Origin: an archaeon | Lineage (GTDB): Archaea > Aenigmatarchaeota > Aenigmatarchaeia > GW2011-AR5 | Assembly (NCBI GenBank): GCA_035289125.1 | Contig: DATDXW010000064.1 | Span: 1-41,211, forward strand | Reading direction: 5' to 3' | Length of the DNA: 41,211 bases | Shown: piece by piece, positions 701 to 27,475 of the stretch | Layout of the letters: each line of letters begins with the position of its first letter | How positions within the stretch are numbered: the stretch's first letter is position 1 | Position numbers and translations under genes: made by a program | Notes under the pieces: generated by a model | The model's input: the letters and a program-made list of their open reading frames with translations, nothing else | Told to the model about the DNA's origin: nothing | The model's database searches: none

Positions 701-773
701 GCCCCTGTAGCTCAGCAGGTAGAGCAACACGCTGTTAACGTGTGGGTCCGCGGTTCGAGTCCGCGCGGGGGCG
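701..773 (+). tRNA. tRNA-Asn (anticodon GTT)
   Basis: Cloverleaf read by eye. Acceptor GCCCCTG/CGGGGGC, D stem GCTC/GAGC, anticodon stem ACACG/CGTGT with loop CTGTTAA, T arm CGCGG-TTCGAGT-CCGCG, discriminator G. No encoded CCA. Confidence 0.93.
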
Positions 774-780
774 CTTTAAG

Positions 781-788
781 AATTTAAG
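781..788 (+). promoter_or_regulatory. TATA-like box (AATTTAAG) that could drive the structured leader and tRNA-Phe
   Basis: The 9-mer ATTTAAGCG (782-790) recurs at 21108-21116 in the secE promoter region. No other TATA-like element lies between here and tRNA-Phe. Confidence 0.35.
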
Positions 789-812
789 CGGATTTGTCTA
801 TATGAGTATGAA

Positions 813-970
813 ATGGCATCGACTCGCGAAGCAAGGAGCAGTAATAATATGGCATGCGATGCAGCGAAGCTGCAGGGCATTGGGATACGACGCGATGGAA
901 ACCGACGCGACGGAAGGCGAATCCGTCATACAGAATCGTGCGTCATACAGCATAGAAGAATGCGGGGTAT
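813..970 (+). repeat. three hairpin boxes of the TGGSATRCGA / GGGGTAT family, directly abutting tRNA-Phe
   Basis: Boxes at 813-838, 844-880 and 881-970. 844-877 matches 20969-21002 at 33/34. 954-970 matches 25529-25545 at 16/17. 813-824 is identical to 21050-21061. Confidence 0.8.
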
Positions 971-971
971 T

Positions 972-1045
972 GGGACAGTAGCTCAGCCTGGGAGAGCACA
1001 CGACTGAAGCTCGTGCTGTCGTGCGTTCAAATCGCACCTGTCCCA
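972..1045 (+). tRNA. tRNA-Phe (anticodon GAA)
   Basis: Acceptor GGGACAG/CTGTCCC, D stem GCTC/GAGC, anticodon stem CACGA/TCGTG with loop CTGAAGC, T arm GTGCG-TTCAAAT-CGCAC, discriminator A. Confidence 0.93.
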
Positions 1046-1151
1046 TATAGTATTTTCCACCTTACGCAACGGATTGCGAACCCCTATCGCATTCACCCAT
1101 CTGGCCAGATTTTTCCTTCCGTACAGCTTTGCGCATCAAGTTGCCCGTGGC

Positions 1152-4574: not shown

Positions 4575-6383
4575 TTATCGCTGTAATAGAACTCCAACCT
4601 TCTCAATGCTCTCCCCATCCGCTAACCGTGCTATTGCGTTGTCAAGCTCGCCGATTTTTATTATGACCTGCTTCTGCGTATCACGGTCGCGCAACGTCAC
4701 GGTATCGTTCTTCATCGTGTCATAATCTACGGTGATACAGAAAGGCGTTCCCGCTTCATCCTGACGGTAATACATCCTTCCGATGGAACCGGTCTCGTCA
4801 TAGGCACAGTAAAAATGCTTTCGCAACGCGGCGAATATCTCTCTGGCTTTCTCGGGCATCCCGTCCTTGCGGACGAGCGGGAAAACGGCGACCTGATACG
4901 GCGCAACGGATGCCGGGAAGGAGAAGAACAGCCGCTCTTTCTCCTCGTGCATCACCGATTCCATAACGCATATCAGGGCGCGGTCTATGCCGTAAGCCGT
5001 CTCGATGACGTGCGGAACGAACTTTGCGCCTTCGTGCGTTATTTCCATGGATTGCTTGCTCACTTGCTGATGCCTTTTCAGGTCGTAATCGCTCCTGTCT
5101 GCGACGCCGACCAATTCTATCACGCCATACTTCTCTGACAGAAACTCAACATCCCATGTGTCGCTGGAATAGAAACTTCGTTCGTCGTCCTCGTGCTGGC
5201 GCAGGCGGAGCTTGCCTGCGTCCATGCCCATTTTTTTATAAAGCTGAAGCGAGCGTGCGAGGAAATACGCGACAGGCTGCTTAACGTGCAACTGGGAAAC
5301 GAGCCGCGACATGCTCATCTTCTTTTCTTTCGCTGCGCCCTTCGGGAGCACGAGCGCCTCGGCGCTTGCCACGTTATCAAAACCTTTCCATTCAACGATG
5401 CCCGGAGGCGTGAAGAACTGGATTTCGGCTTGGGAGAATTCGCGCTGCCGGATGACGGCTTTGCGCGGCGAAATCTCGTTGCGGAAGCTTCTTCCTATCT
5501 GTATCGCGCCGAAAGGCATCTTGCGCCGCGCTATCTCGTAGAGCCGGCGGAAAGGCATATACGTTGTCTGCGCCGTTTCCGGGCGCAGGGCGCCCTCTAA
5601 CTTGGCGTTGCCCGGCCCGATGAACGTCTTGAACATGAGATTGTAATCGTAAACTTTATCAAGCGCGCCCTTGCATTTCGGGCATTTTATACCGTTCTTG
5701 TGTATAATTTCATTTATGTCAGAATCGTTAAACAGAAGCGACCCATCCACCGCTATGTCCACCTTTTCGCTACCGGCGACGAGTGATACATCACGAATAT
5801 CTATCTTGACGCCATGATATGATAATTTGCTATCGTTTGTCACTGTACACTTACTCTTCAGGGCATTCAATACGGACTCTTTACTTCCTTTCGTTCTCTT
5901 TTTTAAACATAACGAAACCGAAGAAGTGAAATCCGGACCATGCGCCACGCTTGTTTCCACTTCCTTACTTATACCAGAATCCTTGATAATGTCCAGAAGC
6001 CTAATCATAGTATGCTCTTCCACCAGATGGTCCGCGCGATAAGCTTCGCCGCATTTCCCGCATTCCGTGAGCTTGTCGGCAAAGTTTTCCACGTGCCCGG
6101 AAGCAACCCACGGGTCTATCGTCGTAAGAACAGGCGACTCTATGGCAAGGCATCCCTCTTCCATGACGTAGTAATCAAGAATCATGCCCTCTATGTGCTT
6201 CTTCATTAGCGTTCCGAGCGGCCCGTAATCGTAGAAGCCGGAAACCCCGCCGTAAATCTCCTGCGACGGCCAGAAGAACCCGCGGTTCTTGGCGATCTCC
6301 TCTAATTTATCGATGAGCATGACTTCTATTGAATCCTCATTTTTAAATCCGTGACATGGTTTTATAAGACTTGGGCGAATCAT
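4575..6383 (-). CDS. glyS: glycine--tRNA ligase (archaeal/eukaryotic alpha2 type)
   Basis: IAKNRGFFWPSQEIYGGVSGFYDYGPLG, class II motifs (FRNEISPR, GIDR), C-terminal anticodon-binding region. An alternative start at 6320 (MLIDKLEEIAK...) is possible. Confidence 0.95.
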   Translation of the reverse strand: MIRPSLIKPCHGFKNEDSIEVMLIDKLEEIAKNRGFFWPSQEIYGGVSGFYDYGPLGTLMKKHIEGMILDYYVMEEGCLAIESPVLTTIDPWVASGHVENFADKLTECGKCGEAYRADHLVEEHTMIRLLDIIKDSGISKEVETSVAHGPDFTSSVSLCLKKRTKGSKESVLNALKSKCTVTNDSKLSYHGVKIDIRDVSLVAGSEKVDIAVDGSLLFNDSDINEIIHKNGIKCPKCKGALDKVYDYNLMFKTFIGPGNAKLEGALRPETAQTTYMPFRRLYEIARRKMPFGAIQIGRSFRNEISPRKAVIRQREFSQAEIQFFTPPGIVEWKGFDNVASAEALVLPKGAAKEKKMSMSRLVSQLHVKQPVAYFLARSLQLYKKMGMDAGKLRLRQHEDDERSFYSSDTWDVEFLSEKYGVIELVGVADRSDYDLKRHQQVSKQSMEITHEGAKFVPHVIETAYGIDRALICVMESVMHEEKERLFFSFPASVAPYQVAVFPLVRKDGMPEKAREIFAALRKHFYCAYDETGSIGRMYYRQDEAGTPFCITVDYDTMKNDTVTLRDRDTQKQVIIKIGELDNAIARLADGESIEKVGVLLQR

Positions 6384-8080: not shown

Positions 8081-9322
8081 ATGTACAAGCTCACAGAAGA
8101 AGGGCGAAAGTATCTTGAAAAAGGGCTGCCGGAGAAGCGGCTGATGGAGCTACTGGCGAAGGGTTCGGTGACGGTTGAAGAATCAAAGAAAATGGAGGAT
8201 TTCGCCGTTGCGATGCAGTGGGCGAAGCGCAACGGCTGGATAAAAATGGAGAACGGAAAGATATCCGTTGGCAAATACGATGGAAAAGTGCCGCTGCAAC
8301 AAGCTCTGGTTGACGTAAAAGCGGGCAAGACAGACGGCTTCCAATTGCAGATACTCCTGTCGCGCAACCTCGTAGAGAAAGAGCGGGACGATATAGTGAA
8401 GCAGGCACATGCTTATCTTGGCAGGGAGATAGCGACGCTTCCTTCGGCTCTCATCAAGACGGGATTATGGAGAGAAGCGAAACTGAAAAAGTACAACGTG
8501 GCGGCAACGGGCAAAACGATATATCCGGGAAGGAAGCATCACTACGCTGCGTTCTTGGATAACGTGAAACACAAGCTCGTTGCCATGGGATTCAAGGAGA
8601 TGACCGGCCCGCTCGTGGAAACGGAGTTCTGGAACATGGACGCGCTCTTCATGCCGCAACATCATTCGGCGCGGGACATACACGACGCTTACTTCGTGAA
8701 GGAGCCGAAGTATGCTAAGGCTCTTGATAGTGATATTCTCAACGCCGTGAAAGCCGCTCACGAACGCGGCACTAAGGAGTCTCGTGGATGGCAATATCAA
8801 TACGACGTGCAGCGGGCGCATCGCCACGTGCTCCGCACGCAGGGAACCGTGCTTTCAGCCAAGACGTTAGCGGCGAAGCCTGAGATACCGGGTAAATACT
8901 TCGCCGCGGCGCGTTGCTTCCGTTACGACGTGATAGACGCCACGCATCTGGCGGATTTCTTCCAAGTAGAAGGTATAGTGCTTGAAGAAGGGCTTACGTT
9001 GCGGCATCTGATAGGCATGCTGAAAATGTTCGGCAAGGAGTTCGCCAACGCGGAAAAAATTAAAGTTACGCCTAGTTATTTCCCGTTCACGGAGCCAAGC
9101 GCTGCACTGTATGCAAAGCACCCGGACATGGGATGGATTGAGCTGGGCGGAGCGGGAATATTCAGGGAGGAGATGCTGACACCGCTCGGCATAAGCGTGC
9201 CGGTGATAGCGTGGGGTATAGGGATAGACAGGATCGGGATGTTCAACATGGAAATAAAGGACATACGGGACCTGTTCAGCACTGACCTGAACTATTTGCG
9301 CAGCATGAGGGTGACGTACTGA
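8081..9322 (+). CDS. pheS: phenylalanine--tRNA ligase alpha subunit
   Basis: MGFKEMTGPLVETEFWNMDALFMPQHHSARD, RTQGT, FRYDVIDATHLADFFQVEG, FPFTEPS, GAGIFREE, AWGIGIDR. Confidence 0.95.
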   Translation: MYKLTEEGRKYLEKGLPEKRLMELLAKGSVTVEESKKMEDFAVAMQWAKRNGWIKMENGKISVGKYDGKVPLQQALVDVKAGKTDGFQLQILLSRNLVEKERDDIVKQAHAYLGREIATLPSALIKTGLWREAKLKKYNVAATGKTIYPGRKHHYAAFLDNVKHKLVAMGFKEMTGPLVETEFWNMDALFMPQHHSARDIHDAYFVKEPKYAKALDSDILNAVKAAHERGTKESRGWQYQYDVQRAHRHVLRTQGTVLSAKTLAAKPEIPGKYFAAARCFRYDVIDATHLADFFQVEGIVLEEGLTLRHLIGMLKMFGKEFANAEKIKVTPSYFPFTEPSAALYAKHPDMGWIELGGAGIFREEMLTPLGISVPVIAWGIGIDRIGMFNMEIKDIRDLFSTDLNYLRSMRVTY

Positions 9323-12330: not shown

Positions 12331-12402
12331 TATCTCACTACGATTTTCGTAATCTATTTACGAATTTCAAAATTTAAATAAGCATCCAACGAGAATAACG
12401 GT

Positions 12403-13852: not shown

Positions 13853-13962
13853 TGGGCGTGACGCGATTCGAACGCGCGACCCCCTGCTAACCTTTTCGGA
13901 AGCGGCAAAACCTTTTTCCGAATTAGAAGGCAGGTGCTCTATCCAAGCTGAGCTACACACCC
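13853..13962 (-). tRNA. tRNA-Arg (anticodon TCT) with a 35-nt intron at the canonical 37/38 position (intron about 13889-13923)
   Basis: Reverse complement: GGGTGTG TA GCTC AGCTTGGATA GAGC A CCTGC CTTCTA [ATTCGGAAAAAGGTTTTGCCGCTTCCGAAAAGGTT] A GCAGG GGGTC GCGCG TTCGAAT CGCGT CACGCCC A. All four stems pair. The anticodon region can pair with the intron 3' part (CCUUCU with GAAAAGG). Confidence 0.85.
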
Positions 13963-14016
13963 TTGAAAACTGTTTATCAGCAAAGGAATTTAAGCATAGC
14001 CTGAATATAACAAAGC

Positions 14017-20968: not shown

Positions 20969-21105
20969 ATAATATGGGATGCGATGCAGCGAAGCTGCAG
21001 GGACGTATACAGCTCGCAAATAGATGAGCGACGGGTAGCAAGTTATAATATGGCATCGACTTGATGCAAACCGGTGCGCCGCGCGCGCCATACCGCATCA
21101 AGGGG
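20969..21105 (+). repeat. two hairpin boxes of the TGGSATRCGA / GGGG family directly upstream of the secE TATA box
   Basis: Box b1 (20969-21003) matches 844-877 at 33/34. Box b2 (21045-21105): ATC-GA-CTTGATGC...GCATCAAG-GG-GAT. Confidence 0.8.
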
Positions 21106-21113
21106 ATATTTAA
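21106..21113 (+). promoter_or_regulatory. TATA box (ATATTTAA) for the secE-spt5-rpl11 unit
   Basis: It begins 30 nt upstream of the ATG at 21136, which fits a leaderless transcript. Confidence 0.45.
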
Positions 21114-21135
21114 GCGTTTCTTTCAATTATGGAAA

Positions 21136-21309
21136 ATGGATATACGCGAATCGCTGGCACGAATAAGCAGGGTGATGCAAGTCGCCAGCAAGCCCACTAA
21201 GGACGAGTTCGGTCAGAGCGCAAAGATAACGGGCGCAGGACTGCTCCTTATCGGTGCAACGGGATTTGTGATATTTCTGGCAGCTATGTTGTTGGGTGGT
21301 AATACATGA
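21136..21309 (+). CDS. secE: protein translocase subunit SecE/Sec61-gamma
   Basis: MDIRESLARISRVMQVASKPTKDEFGQSAKITGAGLLLIGATGFVIFLAAML: short tail-anchored protein at the conserved position before spt5. The ORF-track start at 21061 would run through the hairpin repeat. Confidence 0.8.
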   Translation: MDIRESLARISRVMQVASKPTKDEFGQSAKITGAGLLLIGATGFVIFLAAMLLGGNT

Positions 21310-22957: not shown

Positions 22958-23030
22958 CGCCCATGAGGAGACAGTAATAAAATATGTGCCCATTAAACGA
23001 ATATTTATTCGCGTAATAGTTGTTAGTGAA

Positions 23031-23044
23031 ATTGATTTTGGGCG
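23031..23044 (+). repeat. left copy of the 14-bp perfect inverted repeat TTGATTTTGGGCGC bracketing the HIT-like gene
   Basis: Its exact reverse complement occurs at 23512-23525. Confidence 0.9.
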
Positions 23045-23087
23045 CTAAGAGGAATATTTTATATACTATTATGATTCTATTAATTGT

Positions 23088-23510
23088 ATGAAGAAAAAAG
23101 ATTGTGTCTTTTGCAATTTTAAAGACAAGGAAGTTCTATTTTATGAAGACCGTTTATGCTATGCAGTCATAAGTAAAAATCCTATAAACAAATATCATGT
23201 ATTAATTATTCCTAAAGAGCACTACCAAGAGTTTGTAGAACTTCCTGACGAACTCGCTTCGCACATCTTTCTTGTTGCCAAAAAGATTTCTAAAGCTGTT
23301 AGGAAAGCATGCAACCCTGATGCAATATCACATCTTTTTGATGATGATACTTCGAAGAGCGGTTATAATCTGGTTGCACATTACAAGTTTCATATCATTC
23401 CTCGATTCAAGAAAGATATGCCTCTGATTGACTGGAGTCCATTAAGAACAGATGAAAGTAGCGAAGCTCGTTCTAAATATGCAAAAGACATTAAGAAATA
23501 TTTGAAGTGA
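23088..23510 (+). CDS. HIT-superfamily-like protein with an atypical H-x-K-x-H motif
   Basis: CVFCNF...NKYHVLIIPKEH...NLVAHYKFHIIPR. Strongly AT-rich. Own TATA-like TTTTATATAC at about 23057-23066. Confidence 0.8.
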   Translation: MKKKDCVFCNFKDKEVLFYEDRLCYAVISKNPINKYHVLIIPKEHYQEFVELPDELASHIFLVAKKISKAVRKACNPDAISHLFDDDTSKSGYNLVAHYKFHIIPRFKKDMPLIDWSPLRTDESSEARSKYAKDIKKYLK

Positions 23511-23511
23511 C

Positions 23512-23525
23512 GCGCCCAAAATCAA
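23512..23525 (-). repeat. right (inverted) copy of TTGATTTTGGGCGC
   Basis: The plus strand reads GCGCCCAAAATCAA and begins 2 nt after the HIT-like stop codon. Confidence 0.9.
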
Positions 23526-23579
23526 CTCAAGCCACGCTGCGCTCTCGTTCCGCTTCGCTCCACTCGGGTCACTTAACAA

Positions 23580-23659
23580 GGGATATACGGTTCGGGGCTC
23601 GGCTCGCCCCTCACCCAAATTTTTCTTCCGCTACGCTCCAGAAAAACTTCGTATATCCC
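23580..23659 (+). repeat. 80-nt element able to form a three-way junction
   Basis: Closing inverted repeat GGGATATACG (23580-23589) / CGTATATCCC (23650-23659). Inner hairpins GGGGC-TCGGCTC-GCCCC (23594-23610) and TTTTTCT-N13-AGAAAAA (23620-23646). Confidence 0.7.
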
Positions 23660-23723
23660 TGACGTTATATTCAATTGTCGGCAGAAATATTACGAGGGGG
23701 TCGGCTCGCTCTAATTTGGTTTT

Positions 23724-23984
23724 TTAATCTCCCTTACTTTGAAGAGCATAAGGTTCAAACATTAGAATGTAAGTATCTTCTTCGCTTGTGGGACAATGCT
23801 CTATTCTATAATCGCCAACGCGGACTCTGAATATTTTCTCTTTTCTGTTGACTACTCTCTTGACATCACTTGGGAAAGGGTCATGCGTTAGCTTTTCTAT
23901 TTCTTCAACAATTCGCTTTGCGATTTGTTTTTCAGTCTTCTTTAGAAATTTTCTGGCTTGAGAAGAAAATTCAACAACAAACAT
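23724..23984 (-). CDS. RelE/ParE-superfamily toxin-like protein
   Basis: From the internal ATG: MFVVEFSSQARKFLKKTEKQIAKRIVEEIEKLTHDPFPSDVKRV...IFRVRVGDYRI...TYILMFEP, which matches the archaeal RelE pattern (…R.R.GDYR…). Confidence 0.72.
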   Translation of the reverse strand: MFVVEFSSQARKFLKKTEKQIAKRIVEEIEKLTHDPFPSDVKRVVNRKEKIFRVRVGDYRIEHCPTSEEDTYILMFEPYALQSKGD

Positions 23985-23985
23985 T

Positions 23986-24189
23986 TCATAACCCCAACTC
24001 CTTTTTGAGTTCGGAAAGTGGGTTCGTTTTTCCTTCTTTGAGTTCCCGCATACTTTGTTCAAATCGCCTACTTCCCTCTGTAGTCATTATCGTATCTGGA
24101 TCAAACATGTGCTTTTTAATGAATACGACTTCTTTCCTTAATTCCTTTAGCTCATCGTATATTCTTTAAACGGTAGTTATTTCTGCCAT
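23986..24189 (-). pseudogene. cognate antitoxin-like gene with an in-frame TAA at codon 8 (24166-24168)
   Basis: MAEITTV*RIYDELKELRKEVVFIKKHMFDPDTIMTTEGSRRFEQSMRELKEGKTNPLSELKKELGL*. Its stop lies 1 nt before the toxin ATG. The next in-frame ATG would leave only 40 aa. Confidence 0.55.
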
Positions 24190-24392
24190 AATACCTCTTT
24201 TGCGGTATCTTTATTTAAGTCTAACGGCGGCTTAATGACGGATTTCTGAACTCTTCGCTTCCTCGGAAGCTTGTTTTTGGCAATACTTCAATTTAGCCTT
24301 CAGACATTTTACGCCAAAAAGGACTTAACACGAATGTTACGGCTTACTTCGTGCGCCCATGTCCGCCTTTGGCGAACATCGCAAAATCCGAT

Positions 24393-24421
24393 ACGTTATA
24401 TGACATTGGGGTTCGGGCTCT
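24393..24421 (+). repeat. cassette-boundary motif copy (ACGTTATATGACATTGGGGTTCGGGCTCT)
   Basis: 25/29 identical to 24613-24641. Related to 23662-23712. Confidence 0.8.
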
Positions 24422-24612
24422 AACTGACTGTTAATTATCTACAAAAATAGAATAAACCTCTTATCGTTTAGCGACAAAGTGATTTTTTCCCACATCTACC
24501 GCGTTTTTTTCGGCCATCTTCTTTTTGAATGCTGCCGGGCGATCTATGATTTCTCCAGTTTCACTTACAAAGATATCACCCAAATTCCTGCTGGAACTTC
24601 TCAAAGTCTCGG

Positions 24613-24641
24613 ACGTTGTATGACGTCGGGTTTCGGGCTCT
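24613..24641 (+). repeat. cassette-boundary motif copy (ACGTTGTATGACGTCGGGTTTCGGGCTCT)
   Basis: Contains GTCGGGTTTCGGGC (24625-24638). An inverted copy (13/14) lies at 25205-25218. Confidence 0.8.
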
Positions 24642-24647
24642 CCTCCT

Positions 24648-25133
24648 TTACCAGAAAAAGTGGCATTGAGTATAGCCGGGTCTCCATCGATAAGAACCGA
24701 AACTTCTGTGTCCTTGAGAGGGGGTTACTTTCAAATAATCTCTTTGAGCCATAATACTTTTCCACTCTCTAGCTATTTCTTCCAGTGAAGAAATAGTATA
24801 ACCTATATGTTCAGGAATCGGAGGTATCCCTTCTCTATGTGGAAAATCTGTAACACATATCTGGGTACTCCCAGCACCACAACCTACAAGACTTTTAAGA
24901 TACTGGTTGGGAACGTAGAGCAAACCTGATTTGCCAGCCGATACGAATCGTCTACCCGGGTGATACGCCTCTATATGCGGCATTACTTCAGCACCCAGAT
25001 GATAGTATTCTGCGGGATCTCTAGGGATTCTAACTTCTATTACATCAGAAATATTTTCCAGTCCATCTAATAATTTCCCTAATACCTCATCCCAAGCATG
25101 TGTTCTACGTTGCTCTTCTGTCAACGTGGTCAT
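24648..25133 (-). CDS. hypothetical protein, probably frameshifted (coding signal continues to 24461 in another frame)
   Basis: 161-codon ORF. Downstream of a C5 run (24720-24724), a second frame stays open for 87 more codons to TAA at 24461-24463. Confidence 0.55.
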   Translation of the reverse strand: MTTLTEEQRRTHAWDEVLGKLLDGLENISDVIEVRIPRDPAEYYHLGAEVMPHIEAYHPGRRFVSAGKSGLLYVPNQYLKSLVGCGAGSTQICVTDFPHREGIPPIPEHIGYTISSLEEIAREWKSIMAQRDYLKVTPSQGHRSFGSYRWRPGYTQCHFFW

Positions 25134-25204
25134 AATTTATCTCCATATCTTTCTTCTGCTTTTTGCTATTACTTCCATACATAAGTATTTAATAATTTTT
25201 CGGC

Positions 25205-25218
25205 GCCCGAAACCCAAC
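25205..25218 (-). repeat. inverted copy of the boundary motif (GTTGGGTTTCGGGC on the minus strand)
   Basis: The plus strand reads GCCCGAAACCCAAC inside the near-palindrome TTTCGGCGCCCGAAA. Confidence 0.8.
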
Positions 25219-25251
25219 GCTTCGCAATTACCTTTGTGATTGATAAGTATA

Positions 25252-25292
25252 GTAAACTGCGTAATTTGTGTGACATACATTACGCAGTTTAC
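25252..25292. repeat. 14-bp perfect inverted repeat GTAAACTGCGTAAT / ATTACGCAGTTTAC with a 13-nt spacer
   Basis: Arms at 25252-25265 and 25279-25292. Nearby are GTGACATA/TATGTCAC (25269-25276 / 25313-25320) and repeated CGCAGTT words. Confidence 0.85.
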
Positions 25293-25370
25293 ATATAGAC
25301 AACTGCTAATAATATGTCACCTAAGTTTCGCAGTTATCTATAATTGCTCTATCTCGACAATATTTCAAAT

Positions 25371-25545
25371 ATAGGATACGATGCATTCGCAGAATGCGGG
25401 CGTTAGTAAAGGAACGGAGAAAGACTTCCTACGCACGGTTCGGTTTTTGACGGTGCGGGTTGTAAAAGCATAATATGGGATACGATTCACGAATGAAATG
25501 AGTGAAGGGTATTGGCATACGACGCATTCGAAGAATGCGGGGTAT
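25371..25545 (+). repeat. three hairpin boxes (c0, c1, c2) plus a Q/P block upstream of the rpl1 TATA box
   Basis: c0 25371-25402 (GCATTC-GCA-GAATGC). Q/P block 25417-25468 (27/31 to 19366-19396). c1 25470-25512 (ATAC-GA-TTCAC...GTGAA-GG-GTAT). c2 25511-25545 (ATAC-GA-CGCATTC-GAA-GAATGCG-GG-GTAT). Confidence 0.8.
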
Positions 25546-25555
25546 ATTTATATAC
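25543..25555 (+). promoter_or_regulatory. TATA box (TATATTTATATAC) for the rpl1-rplP0-rpl12 unit
   Basis: About 65-75 nt upstream of the rpl1 ATG. The predicted leader carries a hairpin (25562-25592) and an AGGAGG Shine-Dalgarno element at 25604-25609. Confidence 0.45.
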
Positions 25556-25617
25556 TTTACGGCGATACGTAGTAAAGTCCGTATACTGTCGCGCTTCTGC
25601 GGCAGGAGGACGTTTGT

Positions 25618-26220
25618 ATGAAAGTGGAAGACGCGATAAAGGAGATACGAAGCCAGCCGAAGAGAAACTTCGCACAAGGCGTGGAACTTAACATAATACT
25701 CAAGAATATAGACCCAAAGAGGCCCGAGCAGCGCTTCAGCAAAGACGTGGTGCTGCCGCACGGCCGGGGAAAGGATGTGAAAGTAGGAATAATGTCCGAC
25801 AAAATACCGAATGCCATAACCAAGAGCGACCTGGAAAGCATGACAACCGACACCAAAAAGATGCGCGCCATGCTCAAAGATTATAGATATTTCCTCTGCG
25901 AACCGCCGCTCATGGTGACGGTCGGCAAGGTGCTTGGAAAATACCTCGGTCCCAAGGGAAGGATGCCCAAGCCCATCATGCCTACGATGTCCGTGGAAAA
26001 GATGATGGAGAGCTTCACGAAATCCGTTACGCTGCGGATGCAGGACTCCGTTTCTCTCAACGTGCCGGTGGGCACGGAAAGCATGGAAGATGCGAAGCTC
26101 GCAGACAACGTTAATGCCGTACTGAACGAGCTGAAGGCGATGCTGCCCAAGGGTGCCAACCAGATAAAGCGCGTCATACTGAAAACTACCATGGGCAAAC
26201 CGGTGATTATGGATGATTAA
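25618..26220 (+). CDS. rpl1: 50S ribosomal protein uL1
   Basis: KRNFAQGVELNIILKNIDPKRPEQRFSKDVVLPHGRGKDVKV...LGPKGRMPKP. Confidence 0.95.
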   Translation: MKVEDAIKEIRSQPKRNFAQGVELNIILKNIDPKRPEQRFSKDVVLPHGRGKDVKVGIMSDKIPNAITKSDLESMTTDTKKMRAMLKDYRYFLCEPPLMVTVGKVLGKYLGPKGRMPKPIMPTMSVEKMMESFTKSVTLRMQDSVSLNVPVGTESMEDAKLADNVNAVLNELKAMLPKGANQIKRVILKTTMGKPVIMDD

Positions 26221-27370: not shown

Positions 27371-27475
27371 AATTTTATTTGATTAGTTCTTACTTCGGGC
27401 TTTGTGTCGTGACTTTTGAGTGAGGGTGTGAAGTGTAAACTGGGCATTTTTATACATTAATACCCTGATAGTCTT

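Follow-up and report, generated by a model that had tools for sequence, protein, structure and literature searches.

A duplicating hairpin repeat in Aenigmarchaeota and its candidate role as a portable promoter-to-start-codon cassette

The leader of the tRNA-Phe gene on a 41,211-nucleotide (nt) contig from an archaeon of the Aenigmatarchaeota (lineage GW2011-AR5; GenBank assembly GCA_035289125.1, contig DATDXW010000064.1, positions 1 to 41,211, hereafter the window) is filled with short hairpin-bearing sequence boxes that recur before two ribosomal-protein operons. These boxes make up a new and well-defined family whose general kind, small structured repeats carrying expression signals, is known. 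We favor, with moderate confidence, the interpretation that they are a lineage-specific duplicating repeat that would act, judging from its sequence, as a portable promoter-to-start-codon cassette with a sense-strand hairpin. A full unit would comprise, in order, an A-rich tract with ATAATAT, the 5′ word TGG-S-AURC-GA, a variable hairpin, the 3′ word GG-GYAU, 0-4 nt, and ATG. The units share one anatomy, their pairing is constrained, they keep register with start codons, and they have been gained and turned over along particular lineages.

The family extends beyond the window. A scan of metagenome contigs with the pattern ATAATATGGSATRCG-N(11-41)-GGGBATW returned 68 loci, approximately 43 of which carry true boxes with hairpins, in addition to the three loci described in an earlier reading of the window made from its letters alone (the sequence-only reading). 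Most box loci come from three samples of the site that holds the window organism, and some come from other sites; related loci and genomes are designated here by L numbers. The non-redundant set comprises 48 clusters of one to six units apiece from several species. Box-bearing contigs range from 34% to 51% GC, and between two of the box-bearing species, S15 is 59% identical in protein sequence. The window population itself recurs across several groundwater metagenome assemblies, its boxes unchanged. In a representative-genome collection, a tandem-box pattern gave 8 matches versus approximately 4 expected by chance: the 1 archaeal match is coding sequence, and the seven bacterial matches, uninspected, are taken as chance. 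Given that no true box appears there, the species is taken to lie outside that collection. A 16-mer scan of a viral collection gave at least 120 matches, none inspected, a number that agrees with the chance expectation. Rfam, the search that the sequence-only reading had proposed, assigned the boxes to no family: only tRNA and rRNA matches appear at gathering thresholds in the window and 20 family loci, and tRNA-Phe alone appears at E up to 10 in window 760-1060. Text searches of the literature found no paper on the box motif or on Aenigmarchaeota promoters.

The flanks of the hairpin covary. Specifically, among 41 distinct complete boxes, A at the variable base of the 5′ word is always accompanied by GUAU and G always by GCAU, with no mixed case, in a comparison that accepted the 3′ word in either form whatever the 5′ base. 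The third outer pair of the 26-sequence alignments is AU 20 times and GC 6 times, with zero mismatches. Boxes of the Aenigmarchaeota metagenome-assembled genome (MAG) L214 (GCA_016180945.1) add the helices AUC/GAU and CUC/GAG, such that the variants across the family are AUAC/GUAU, AUGC/GCAU, AUC/GAU, and CUC/GAG. Identical inner stems (TGCATGC, CTCGC) occur with both of the outer helices GUAU and GCAU close, and thus, the two forms are not simply two lineages. Across nine modelled pairs, 98.7% of cells hold standard pairs versus 82% in shuffled alignments, and the covariation score is 0.56 versus 0.24; 0 of 500 shuffles reach either value. Sliding the register drops pairing to 17-64% in all cases. 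Boxes entered this analysis partly by virtue of four closing pairs in the inner stem; the outer helix and the fifth pair played no part in the selection.

The inner stem varies in sequence and length while it remains paired. At least 24 different short stems occur, and C-GAA/GCA/GGA-G triloops close 26 of 49 distinct hairpins. Hairpin length is 11-21 nt and reaches 77 nt; in the 21-nt class, tandem G.A pairs are followed by an inner C-GAA-G, and in long-insert boxes, further hairpins with the common stem GACGCRC...GYGCGUC are nested in the box-stem loop. G.U outnumbers A.C in short stems by 7 to 2, reflecting few independent events, too few to separate RNA from DNA. Folded singly, short boxes give an outer helix of 4-5 base pairs (bp), then a 2x2 GA/GG loop and the inner stem (z -2.3 to -4.4). 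The sequence-only reading had proposed this fold, with an outer helix of 3-4 bp, and had regarded it as a selected structure; both proposals agree with the folding and the covariation. Its remark that GCGAAGC forms an unusually stable mini-hairpin is correct; a review describes the heptamer as a DNA mini-hairpin motif and reports that the RNA tetraloop counterpart r(GCGAAAGC) is much less stable (PMC13037366).

Several familiar structures were considered for the box and rejected. A kink-turn, the L7Ae-binding motif, has a 3-nt bulge and tandem sheared G.A/A.G pairs, whereas the internal loop here is symmetric (2x2, 5′-GA/5′-GG) and bulge-free. A bulge-helix-bulge, the site of the archaeal splicing endonuclease, places a 3-nt bulge on each strand at either end of a 4-bp helix, and it does not fit a 4-bp outer helix with a 2x2 loop on one side and an unpaired UGG on the 5′ strand only. 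An extended AUAAUA/UAUUAU helix hiding the AUG can be drawn in the window lineage, but the L214 prefixes and tails break it. An intrinsic terminator (a hairpin with a U run after it) or CRISPR repeat (identical repeats at regular intervals around unique spacers) is rejected because the 3′ side is GGGGUAU followed by ATG or TATA and the units are variable and contiguous. Finally, complementarity of the 5′ word to 16S rRNA is at chance level.

We also note two further hairpin families. The nested stem belongs to a second conserved module, GACGCRC...GYGCGUC(AUACAG), which often encloses a GACGG-CGAAG-CCGUC hairpin within box-stem loops (Table 1); its 3′ word GUGCGUCAUACAGCAUCG is present also in the 16S-tRNA-Ala spacer. 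A separate intergenic family, CGAAGAAC-N3/4-GTTCTTCG, occurs in two other Aenigmarchaeota (L212 9925-9950 and L214 17895-17960).

The boxes lie in register with genes. Contexts were read from downstream sequence, Rfam results, and Pfam results. Approximately 27 of the 48 clusters end 0-6 nt before (or 2 nt into) the start codon of a real, co-oriented gene. Another 7-8 adjoin a canonical TATA box, 2 (the window and L173) adjoin a tRNA 5′ end, 2 sit 28-37 nt before an ATG having its own Shine-Dalgarno (SD) site, 3-4 lie inside introns or insertions of tRNA or rRNA genes, and approximately six lie elsewhere, including an L180 copy that faces the 3′ end of a convergent gene. The tRNA leader and the position upstream of TATA, as found in the window, are thus the less common sites. 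The genes served include those for ribosomal and transcription proteins (L4, S15 in two species, S9, S19, L10e, a probable L39e, and Rpo5), which recalls the tie to the translation apparatus drawn by the sequence-only reading. That tie proves too narrow: adenylate kinase, SufC and its neighbor, a family-2 glycosyltransferase, a methyltransferase, a carbamoyltransferase, an ERCC4 nuclease, ferredoxin-like, PDCD5-like DNA-binding, and small ribbon-helix-helix-like proteins, and several membrane proteins are also downstream of boxes. The family favors expression machinery without being restricted to it.

The copies in structural RNA genes form a set of their own. Introns of tRNA-Ala(UGC), tRNA-Ala(CGC), and a probable tRNA-Gly(CCC) open exactly with the reverse complement of a box, that is, AUACCCC or UGCCCC, a hairpin, and UCGYAUSCCAUAUUAU (Table 1). 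The L202 intron contains three tandem box copies. Once spliced, such a tRNA intron would be complementary, as an antisense sequence, to the 5′ word conserved among all boxes. A 2.75-kb 16S rRNA gene with large insertions (L181 8574-11322, - strand) carries a sense box at approximately 8822-8862 in an insertion just 5′ of the conserved region around position 1390, and near the 16S 3′ end, small extra insertions vary among related contigs (L202 1590-1640 versus L196 1-40). At L164 4393-4430 (- strand), a sequence like a tRNA 3′ half (T-arm and acceptor end), called by neither Rfam nor ARAGORN, stands directly against a box end and may be part of a tRNA with a very long intron.

Most first units carry what appears to be their own core promoter. 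Across 47 first units, GG is preceded by A-T-A-A-T-A-T, each of the seven positions matching in 40-46 of 47; at every locus, however, one unit had to contain ATAATATGG to be found by the metagenome search. An A-rich stretch lies 5′ of this heptamer, giving the A/T-rich 8-mer and upstream purine/A-rich tract, resembling the B recognition element, of archaeal core promoters; between -25 and -35, no further A/T peak stands out. Only secondary units and the L214 boxes are free of this ascertainment, the latter having been located without reference to the prefix, two by covariance model and two by reading upstream sequences. The L214 prefixes vary and remain TATA-like (GTATAAAA, TTGTAAAA, TTATTATA, and AATAATAT), and the A/T-rich 8-mers of secondary units and L214 boxes together include AATAAAT and GATAGTAT as well as the first three of these.

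The spacing of the prefix can be compared with that of ordinary promoters. At least 13 window genes have TTTAWAWA approximately 21-22 nt before ATG (examples in Table 1), and thus, their mRNAs are presumably leaderless; operon-internal window genes have GAGGTGAT-type SD sites 2-6 nt from ATG. In short boxes, ATAATAT stands 27-37 nt from ATG, which with the usual spacing places the predicted start in the 3′ arm of the hairpin or in the G run, leaving a leader of 5-15 nt. GGGGU can form 5 pairs, including one G.U, with the 16S 3′ end GGAUCACCUCCU, and it stands 2-6 nt from AUG, the same spacing as the GAGGTGAT-type sites. Fused units, in which …GGGYAU is followed directly by UGGSAURCGA…, have no A/T prefix. 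Fused box 1c of the window and the L173 box have no other promoter candidate before the tRNA and therefore must belong to the tRNA precursor. The choice offered by the sequence-only reading, between a structured RNA module and a DNA-level upstream element, is too narrow for units of which most begin with their own A-rich tract and ATAATAT.

The notion is that the TATA-like element would draw the archaeal transcription machinery to the box, with initiation approximately 22 nt further on, in the hairpin 3′ arm or the G run. Subsequently, GGGGU would serve as the SD site of the next start codon. Where units are fused head to tail, operon-internal, or placed before a tRNA, the following unit would be transcribed whole, and its sense hairpin would become a stem-loop next to the ribosome-binding site, at the 5′ end of the transcript or between cistrons. 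In the window, unit 1b would yield a transcript of approximately 100 nt with 1c as the pre-tRNA-Phe leader, and the units before secE and rpl1 would be extra upstream promoters that read through the canonical ones. The family spreads by local tandem duplication and by copy-and-paste among loci. Promoter activity, start site, and SD use are predictions from the unit's sequence and spacing, as is any influence that the hairpin may have on translation or on RNA stability.

The window holds boxes at three loci (813-970, 20969-21107, and 25366-25545), all on the + strand and none elsewhere. The exact word TGGSATRCGA has 5 occurrences in the window, on the + strand only and confined to these loci. 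The 16-mer ATAATATGGSATRCGA, allowing up to 3 mismatches, has 7 matches versus 1.25 expected (0 of 100 shuffles reach 7), and 5 of the 7 fall at the box loci. Table 1 lists the units, with matches to a covariance model built from 26 distinct family members. The sequence-only reading had counted eight boxes of one architecture. The sequences are as it described, but the architecture is complete in only some of them: four are short and well formed (1b, 3b, 3c, and 2a, the last without its 3′ helix), 1c has a long nested insert, 2b has a long stem and loop, and 1a and 3a are degenerate. The count was also incomplete, because a ninth, degenerate unit lies at 21000-21038 in locus 2. The identities reported between loci hold (844-877 versus 20969-21002, 33/34; 954-970 versus 25529-25545, 16/17), as do the ending of the last locus-1 box 1 nt before tRNA-Phe and that of the last box at the other two loci at the TATA box. 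Position 781-788 had been taken as the sole TATA-like element of locus 1; ATAATAT at 844-850, the family's conserved prefix, is there as well. The proposal of a pre-tRNA leader stands for fused box 1c. The 23-nt spacing from 782-789 to the ATGG of box 1a equals the TATA-to-ATG spacing (approximately 21-23 nt) of leaderless window genes. Truncated units with a linker, like 1a, are common in arrays at other loci. Long-insert boxes homologous to 1c occur at L163, L173, L182, L161, and L151, and the 3b hairpin was found in identical form nine times (e.g., L139 and L149), counting same-locus copies from different samples. The proteins nearest to the L1 protein encoded at 25618-26220 are from Candidatus Aenigmarchaeota.

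Table 1. Box units, neighboring signals, and related features (positions refer to the window unless an L number is given)
Feature	Location	Strand	Composition and remarks	Covariance-model match
TATA-like element	782..789	+	ATTTAAGC; 23 nt 5′ of the ATGG opening box 1a; identical word to SecE TATA	
Box 1a, degenerate	813..843	+	ATGGCATCGA, then CTCGC-GAA-GCAAG; purine-rich linker in place of 3′ word	missed in window scan
Box 1b	844..880	+	ATAATAT, GGCATGCGA, TGCAGC-GAA-GCTGCA, GGGCAT; outer helix AUGC/GCAU	850-880, 39 bits, E 8e-7
Box 1c, fused, no TATA-like prefix	881..970	+	TGGGATACGA, 74-nt nested-hairpin insert, GGGTAT	
tRNA-Phe(GAA)	972..1045	+	gene served by locus 1; Rfam 62.5 bits; ARAGORN	
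Box 2a	20969..21002	+	ATAATAT, GGGATGCGA, TGCAGC-GAA-GCTGCA, GGG; 3′ helix lost	20975-21008, 23 bits, E 0.002
Degenerate unit	21000..21038	+	GGGACGTATACAG, CTCGC-AAATAGATGA-GCGAC, GGGTAG; shape of 21-nt hairpin class	
Box 2b	21044..21107	+	TATAATAT, GGCATCGA, 8-bp stem CTTGATGC/GCATCAAG, 27-nt loop, GGGAT; outer helix AUC/GAU; adjoins SecE TATA	21051-21107, weak owing to long insert
Canonical TATA, leaderless secE-nusG-rpl11 unit	21107..21114	+	TATTTAAG; ATG at 21136	
Box 3a, degenerate	25366..25404	+	CAAATATAGGATACGA, TGCATTC-GCA-GAATGCG, GGCGTT	25372-25403, weak, E about 1
Box 3b	25470..25512	+	ATAATAT, GGGATACGA, TTCAC-(11 nt)-GTGAA, GGGTAT	25476-25512, 46 bits, E 2e-8
Box 3c, fused	25513..25545	+	TGGCATACGA, CGCATTC-GAA-GAATGCG, GGGTAT; adjoins L1 TATA	45.5 bits, E 3e-8
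Canonical TATA, rpl1-rpl10-rpl12 operon	25546..25555	+	ATTTATATAC; leader with own GGAGG; ATG at 25618	
TTTAWAWA genes (examples)	1455-1487, 2090-2123, 12370-12402, 13985-14016, 23055-23087, 27445-27475			
Second module GACGCRC...GYGCGUC	891-964; long-insert boxes of L163, L173, L182, L161, L151; L196 150-175; L214 19000-19086			
Introns with antisense boxes	L196 993-1135; L202 ~2690-2859; L155 343-463; L203 ~4600-4700; L188 ~300-340	+ (L196, L202), - (L155)		

Comparison with relatives shows gain and turnover of the boxes. L010 (GCA_016198645.1), whose ribosomal protein L1 is 87% identical to that of the window, has one box adjoining the L1 TATA, with the stem CTCGC-GAA-GCGAG unlike the window's, and no box before SecE, in the compact gene order FtsZ-orf-SecE-NusG-L11-orf-L1. 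In L207/L209, L210, and L211 (L1 52-57% identical), neither the pattern nor the covariance model finds a box, and synteny, the SecE and L1 core promoters, and the leader are kept; those core promoters are conserved in L010, L207, and L210 alike. Sister species thus possess the SecE and L1 core promoters without boxes, which makes the boxes lineage-specific additions rather than a required or ancestral promoter part. At the L1 promoter, the window and L010 have wholly different boxes next to 70 nt that are nearly the same, arguing for copy-and-paste replacement faster than mutation. Across the phylum, the distribution is wide but patchy, given that L214 has boxes before primase, L44e, an EMC3-like gene, and SAICAR synthase and a fourth MAG, L212, has almost none.

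Units also multiply in place. Identical tandem units measure 43 nt (L182), 39 nt (L202), and 58 nt (L195); the last includes 20 nt of non-box flank, which points to local tandem duplication. Copy number at the same locus varies among samples (L139 versus L167; L196 versus L202), and identical hairpins recur at unlinked loci. The RIO1-S15 gap, an overlap or 9 nt in box-free relatives, is 121 nt in L212 and 465 nt in L214, with hairpins between, and 259 nt with six units in L160.

Before S15 in L214 (9800-10000), the 5′ coding end of the gene is repeated as three tandem pseudo-copies that fold as box-like hairpins (ATGGCTCGAATG...; ATAGCCCGAATGCATTCAAAAAGC-GGA-GCTTTTTG-GG-GCAT), and the 5′ word ATGGCNNCGA and CGCATTC stem of the family resemble the S15 start ATGGCACGAATGCATTC. 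These folded-back copies hint at an origin in a duplicated gene start; judging from this resemblance, the family may descend from that of S15.

Several points weigh against the promoter-to-start-codon cassette. The TATA assignment comes from sequence and spacing alone, and the prefix statistics are partly ascertained because the search pattern demanded ATAATATGG. For a single short unit, the predicted start lies in or just after the hairpin, so an RNA stem-loop cannot explain the pairing kept there. The shortest hairpins put the G run at the extreme 5′ end of the transcript or cut it off, which is odd for an SD site. C-GNA-G triloops make up most of the loops; a review presents them as a mini-hairpin motif of DNA and found the RNA tetraloop counterpart r(GCGAAAGC) to be considerably less stable (PMC13037366). 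Copies in introns, in antisense, or facing a convergent gene (L180) mean that not every copy can serve a gene; part of the family, the intron and antisense copies, is merely tolerated. The role of the hairpin is the weak point. An RNA role fits the fused, operon-internal, and tRNA-leader units, and stabilizing 5′ hairpins are known in bacteria. RNA and DNA roles of the hairpin may both hold.

A possible, if unlikely, alternative takes the box as purely an RNA cis-element, transcribed from further upstream or by read-through, in which ATAATAT is just A/U-rich leader and the stem-loop holds the SD site, controlling stability, processing, or translation as a 5′-untranslated or intercistronic element. 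Units do lie within gene pairs that share one direction, are normally co-transcribed, and leave too little space for a terminator (L3-L4, L2-S19, SufB and the next gene, and RIO1-S15), prefix-less fused units adjoining a gene are well formed (3c, 1c, L145, L161, and L177), and two first units begin 23 nt after a canonical TATA (window 782-789; L139). The 3′ partner of the outer helix, placed between the G run and AUG, and the G.U excess in short stems suit RNA as well, although the excess comes from few independent events. On the other hand, most first units have no TATA-like element besides ATAATAT within 50 nt upstream, and units adjoining a canonical TATA fall outside that promoter's mRNA. 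Furthermore, the dominant loops are C-GNA-G rather than GNRA or UNCG, and Rfam offers no match even at E up to 10.

The kept pairing in single units, which RNA fails to explain, would follow if the hairpin acted as single-stranded DNA, and we consider this improbable. Specifically, a non-template C-GNA-G mini-hairpin over the melted region (approximately -14 to +2 of the predicted start) would stabilize the opening of the promoter or gate it, or else a factor that binds single strands would read the hairpin. The hairpin of single units is positioned between the TATA-like element and the predicted start, and the requisite triloop closes about half of the distinct hairpins and also ends the 21-nt class. 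GCGNAGC-type mini-hairpins are described as extraordinarily stable in DNA form (PMC13037366), and the early promoters of phage N4, with a 5-7 bp stem and a GGA or GAA loop, are extruded at physiological supercoiling (PMC4496689). In N4, the hairpin forms on the template strand approximately 11 nt before the start, where the phage single-subunit (virion) RNA polymerase reads it with the host single-stranded DNA-binding protein. The boxes share its stem length, C-G closure, and purine triloop, its conserved stem bases amid varying-but-paired ones, and its location just 5′ of the (predicted) start. They differ in that the stable-loop strand is the coding strand, in serving cellular genes, and in having a TATA-like element. 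Given the strand, we reject a literal N4-type mechanism, no search for an N4-like polymerase having been made. In addition, with lengths of 11-21 nt that can reach 77 nt, the hairpins do not keep a constant position relative to a fixed start, and fused and long-insert units sit in transcribed DNA outside the promoter. If true, the single-stranded reading would make the boxes a cellular archaeal analogue of phage N4 hairpin promoters, spread as a portable cassette, and would be of high interest.

It is equally doubtful, in our view, that the box is a selfish or neutral small repeat, akin to repetitive extragenic palindromic (REP) elements or miniature inverted-repeat transposable elements (MITEs), whose association with gene starts reflects target preference and tolerated insertions. 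Intron copies in both orientations, the copy facing a convergent gene, patchy presence among relatives, identical hairpins at unlinked loci, replacement at an orthologous site, and hairpins nested within hairpins are what such a repeat would produce. The start-codon register is nonetheless very regular and the orientation bias strong, and the flanking words are conserved in species spanning the full GC range. Comparing filled with empty sites (the L1 promoter in the window, L010, and L207; RIO1-S15) revealed no terminal inverted repeat or target-site duplication, and the inclusion of non-box flanks in tandem units indicates local duplication rather than transposition. No transposase, RAYT/Y1 included, was seen in those loci for which Pfam annotation had been precomputed, a screen that extended neither to the metagenome loci nor to the remainder of the genomes. 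Finally, it is very improbable that TGGSATRCGA is the duplex-DNA operator of one global regulator with a large regulon, the hairpin being incidental: the word is the unit's most conserved part and stands just 3′ of the TATA element, where archaeal repressors commonly bind, but it changes along with its 3′ partner in all outer-helix variants, which indicates pairing rather than fixed-duplex recognition, and the spacing between words runs from 11 to 77 nt.

The nearest concepts for the promoter-to-start-codon cassette are, by analogy, mobile promoters, promoter-bearing MITEs such as Correia elements, and REP elements, with the N4 early promoters closest for the hairpin itself. Correia repeat-enclosed elements of Neisseria measure 100-155 bp and have terminal inverted repeats and a TA target duplication. 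They and other promoter-bearing MITEs are small dispersed intergenic repeats near gene starts that can supply promoters and, when transcribed, form hairpins that affect mRNA processing. The boxes resemble them in being small, dispersed, near gene starts, and hairpin-forming; unlike them, they show no terminal inverted repeat or target duplication and grow by tandem duplication. REP elements, which go with RAYT transposases, lie mostly at 3′ ends or between convergent genes, as inverted doublets with a GTAG word. Boxes share with REPs and REPINs the short imperfect palindrome, conserved flanking word, many copies, and extragenic clusters. Yet boxes are directed at gene starts, lack GTAG, and stand predominantly in direct arrays, inverted pairs being rare (L180, L189, and a tRNA-Ala intron). 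Reused, or mobile, prokaryotic promoters are near-identical upstream regions that precede unrelated genes within and across related genomes (Nijveen, Matus-Garcia & van Passel, PMC3575422). As there, the promoter may spread apart from its gene. The box unit departs from them in its size (approximately 35-45 bp), its hairpin with covarying flanks, its exact reach to the start codon, its tandem arrays of up to six, its occurrence in introns, and its archaeal TATA-type, predicted promoter activity.

The surroundings of the third box locus deserve mention. In the stretch at approximately 23000-25600, a 146-aa open reading frame (ORF) and rpl1 are separated by three genes: one of the HIT family, one for a ParE-like toxin, and a 161-aa ORF. 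It is missing in L010 and L207, where the 146-aa ORF and rpl1 are adjacent, and thus represents an insertion or variable region. Between the divergent ORF 24648-25133 (- strand) and the box array, the inverted repeat AAACTGCGTAAT / ATTACGCAGTTT at 25240-25340, accompanied by a partial third copy, TTTCGCAGTTAT, looks like a candidate operator of that ORF. Elsewhere in the window, an intron-containing tRNA at 13853-13962 (- strand; Rfam 52 bits, missed by ARAGORN) has its own TATA, GCTTAAAT, and no box.

Very little is known of how gene expression is controlled in DPANN archaea, which have not been cultured or grow only with difficulty. One stereotyped cassette may precede many genes, among them those for ribosomal proteins, Rpo5, and tRNAs; by extrapolation, a genome would have on the order of 100 boxes. 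If so, it would provide a direct handle on promoter and leader function in a DPANN group. The family would also represent a natural case of promoter or ribosome-binding-site spread via duplication and could furnish a ready part for expression constructs. The intron copies and nested hairpins offer a clean system for the origin and movement of short palindromes. More broadly, the family bears on the question of whether small DNA hairpins join in cellular transcription initiation, and its sequence signature, C-GNA-G triloops placed 3′ of a TATA-like element and 5′ of the predicted start, points that way.

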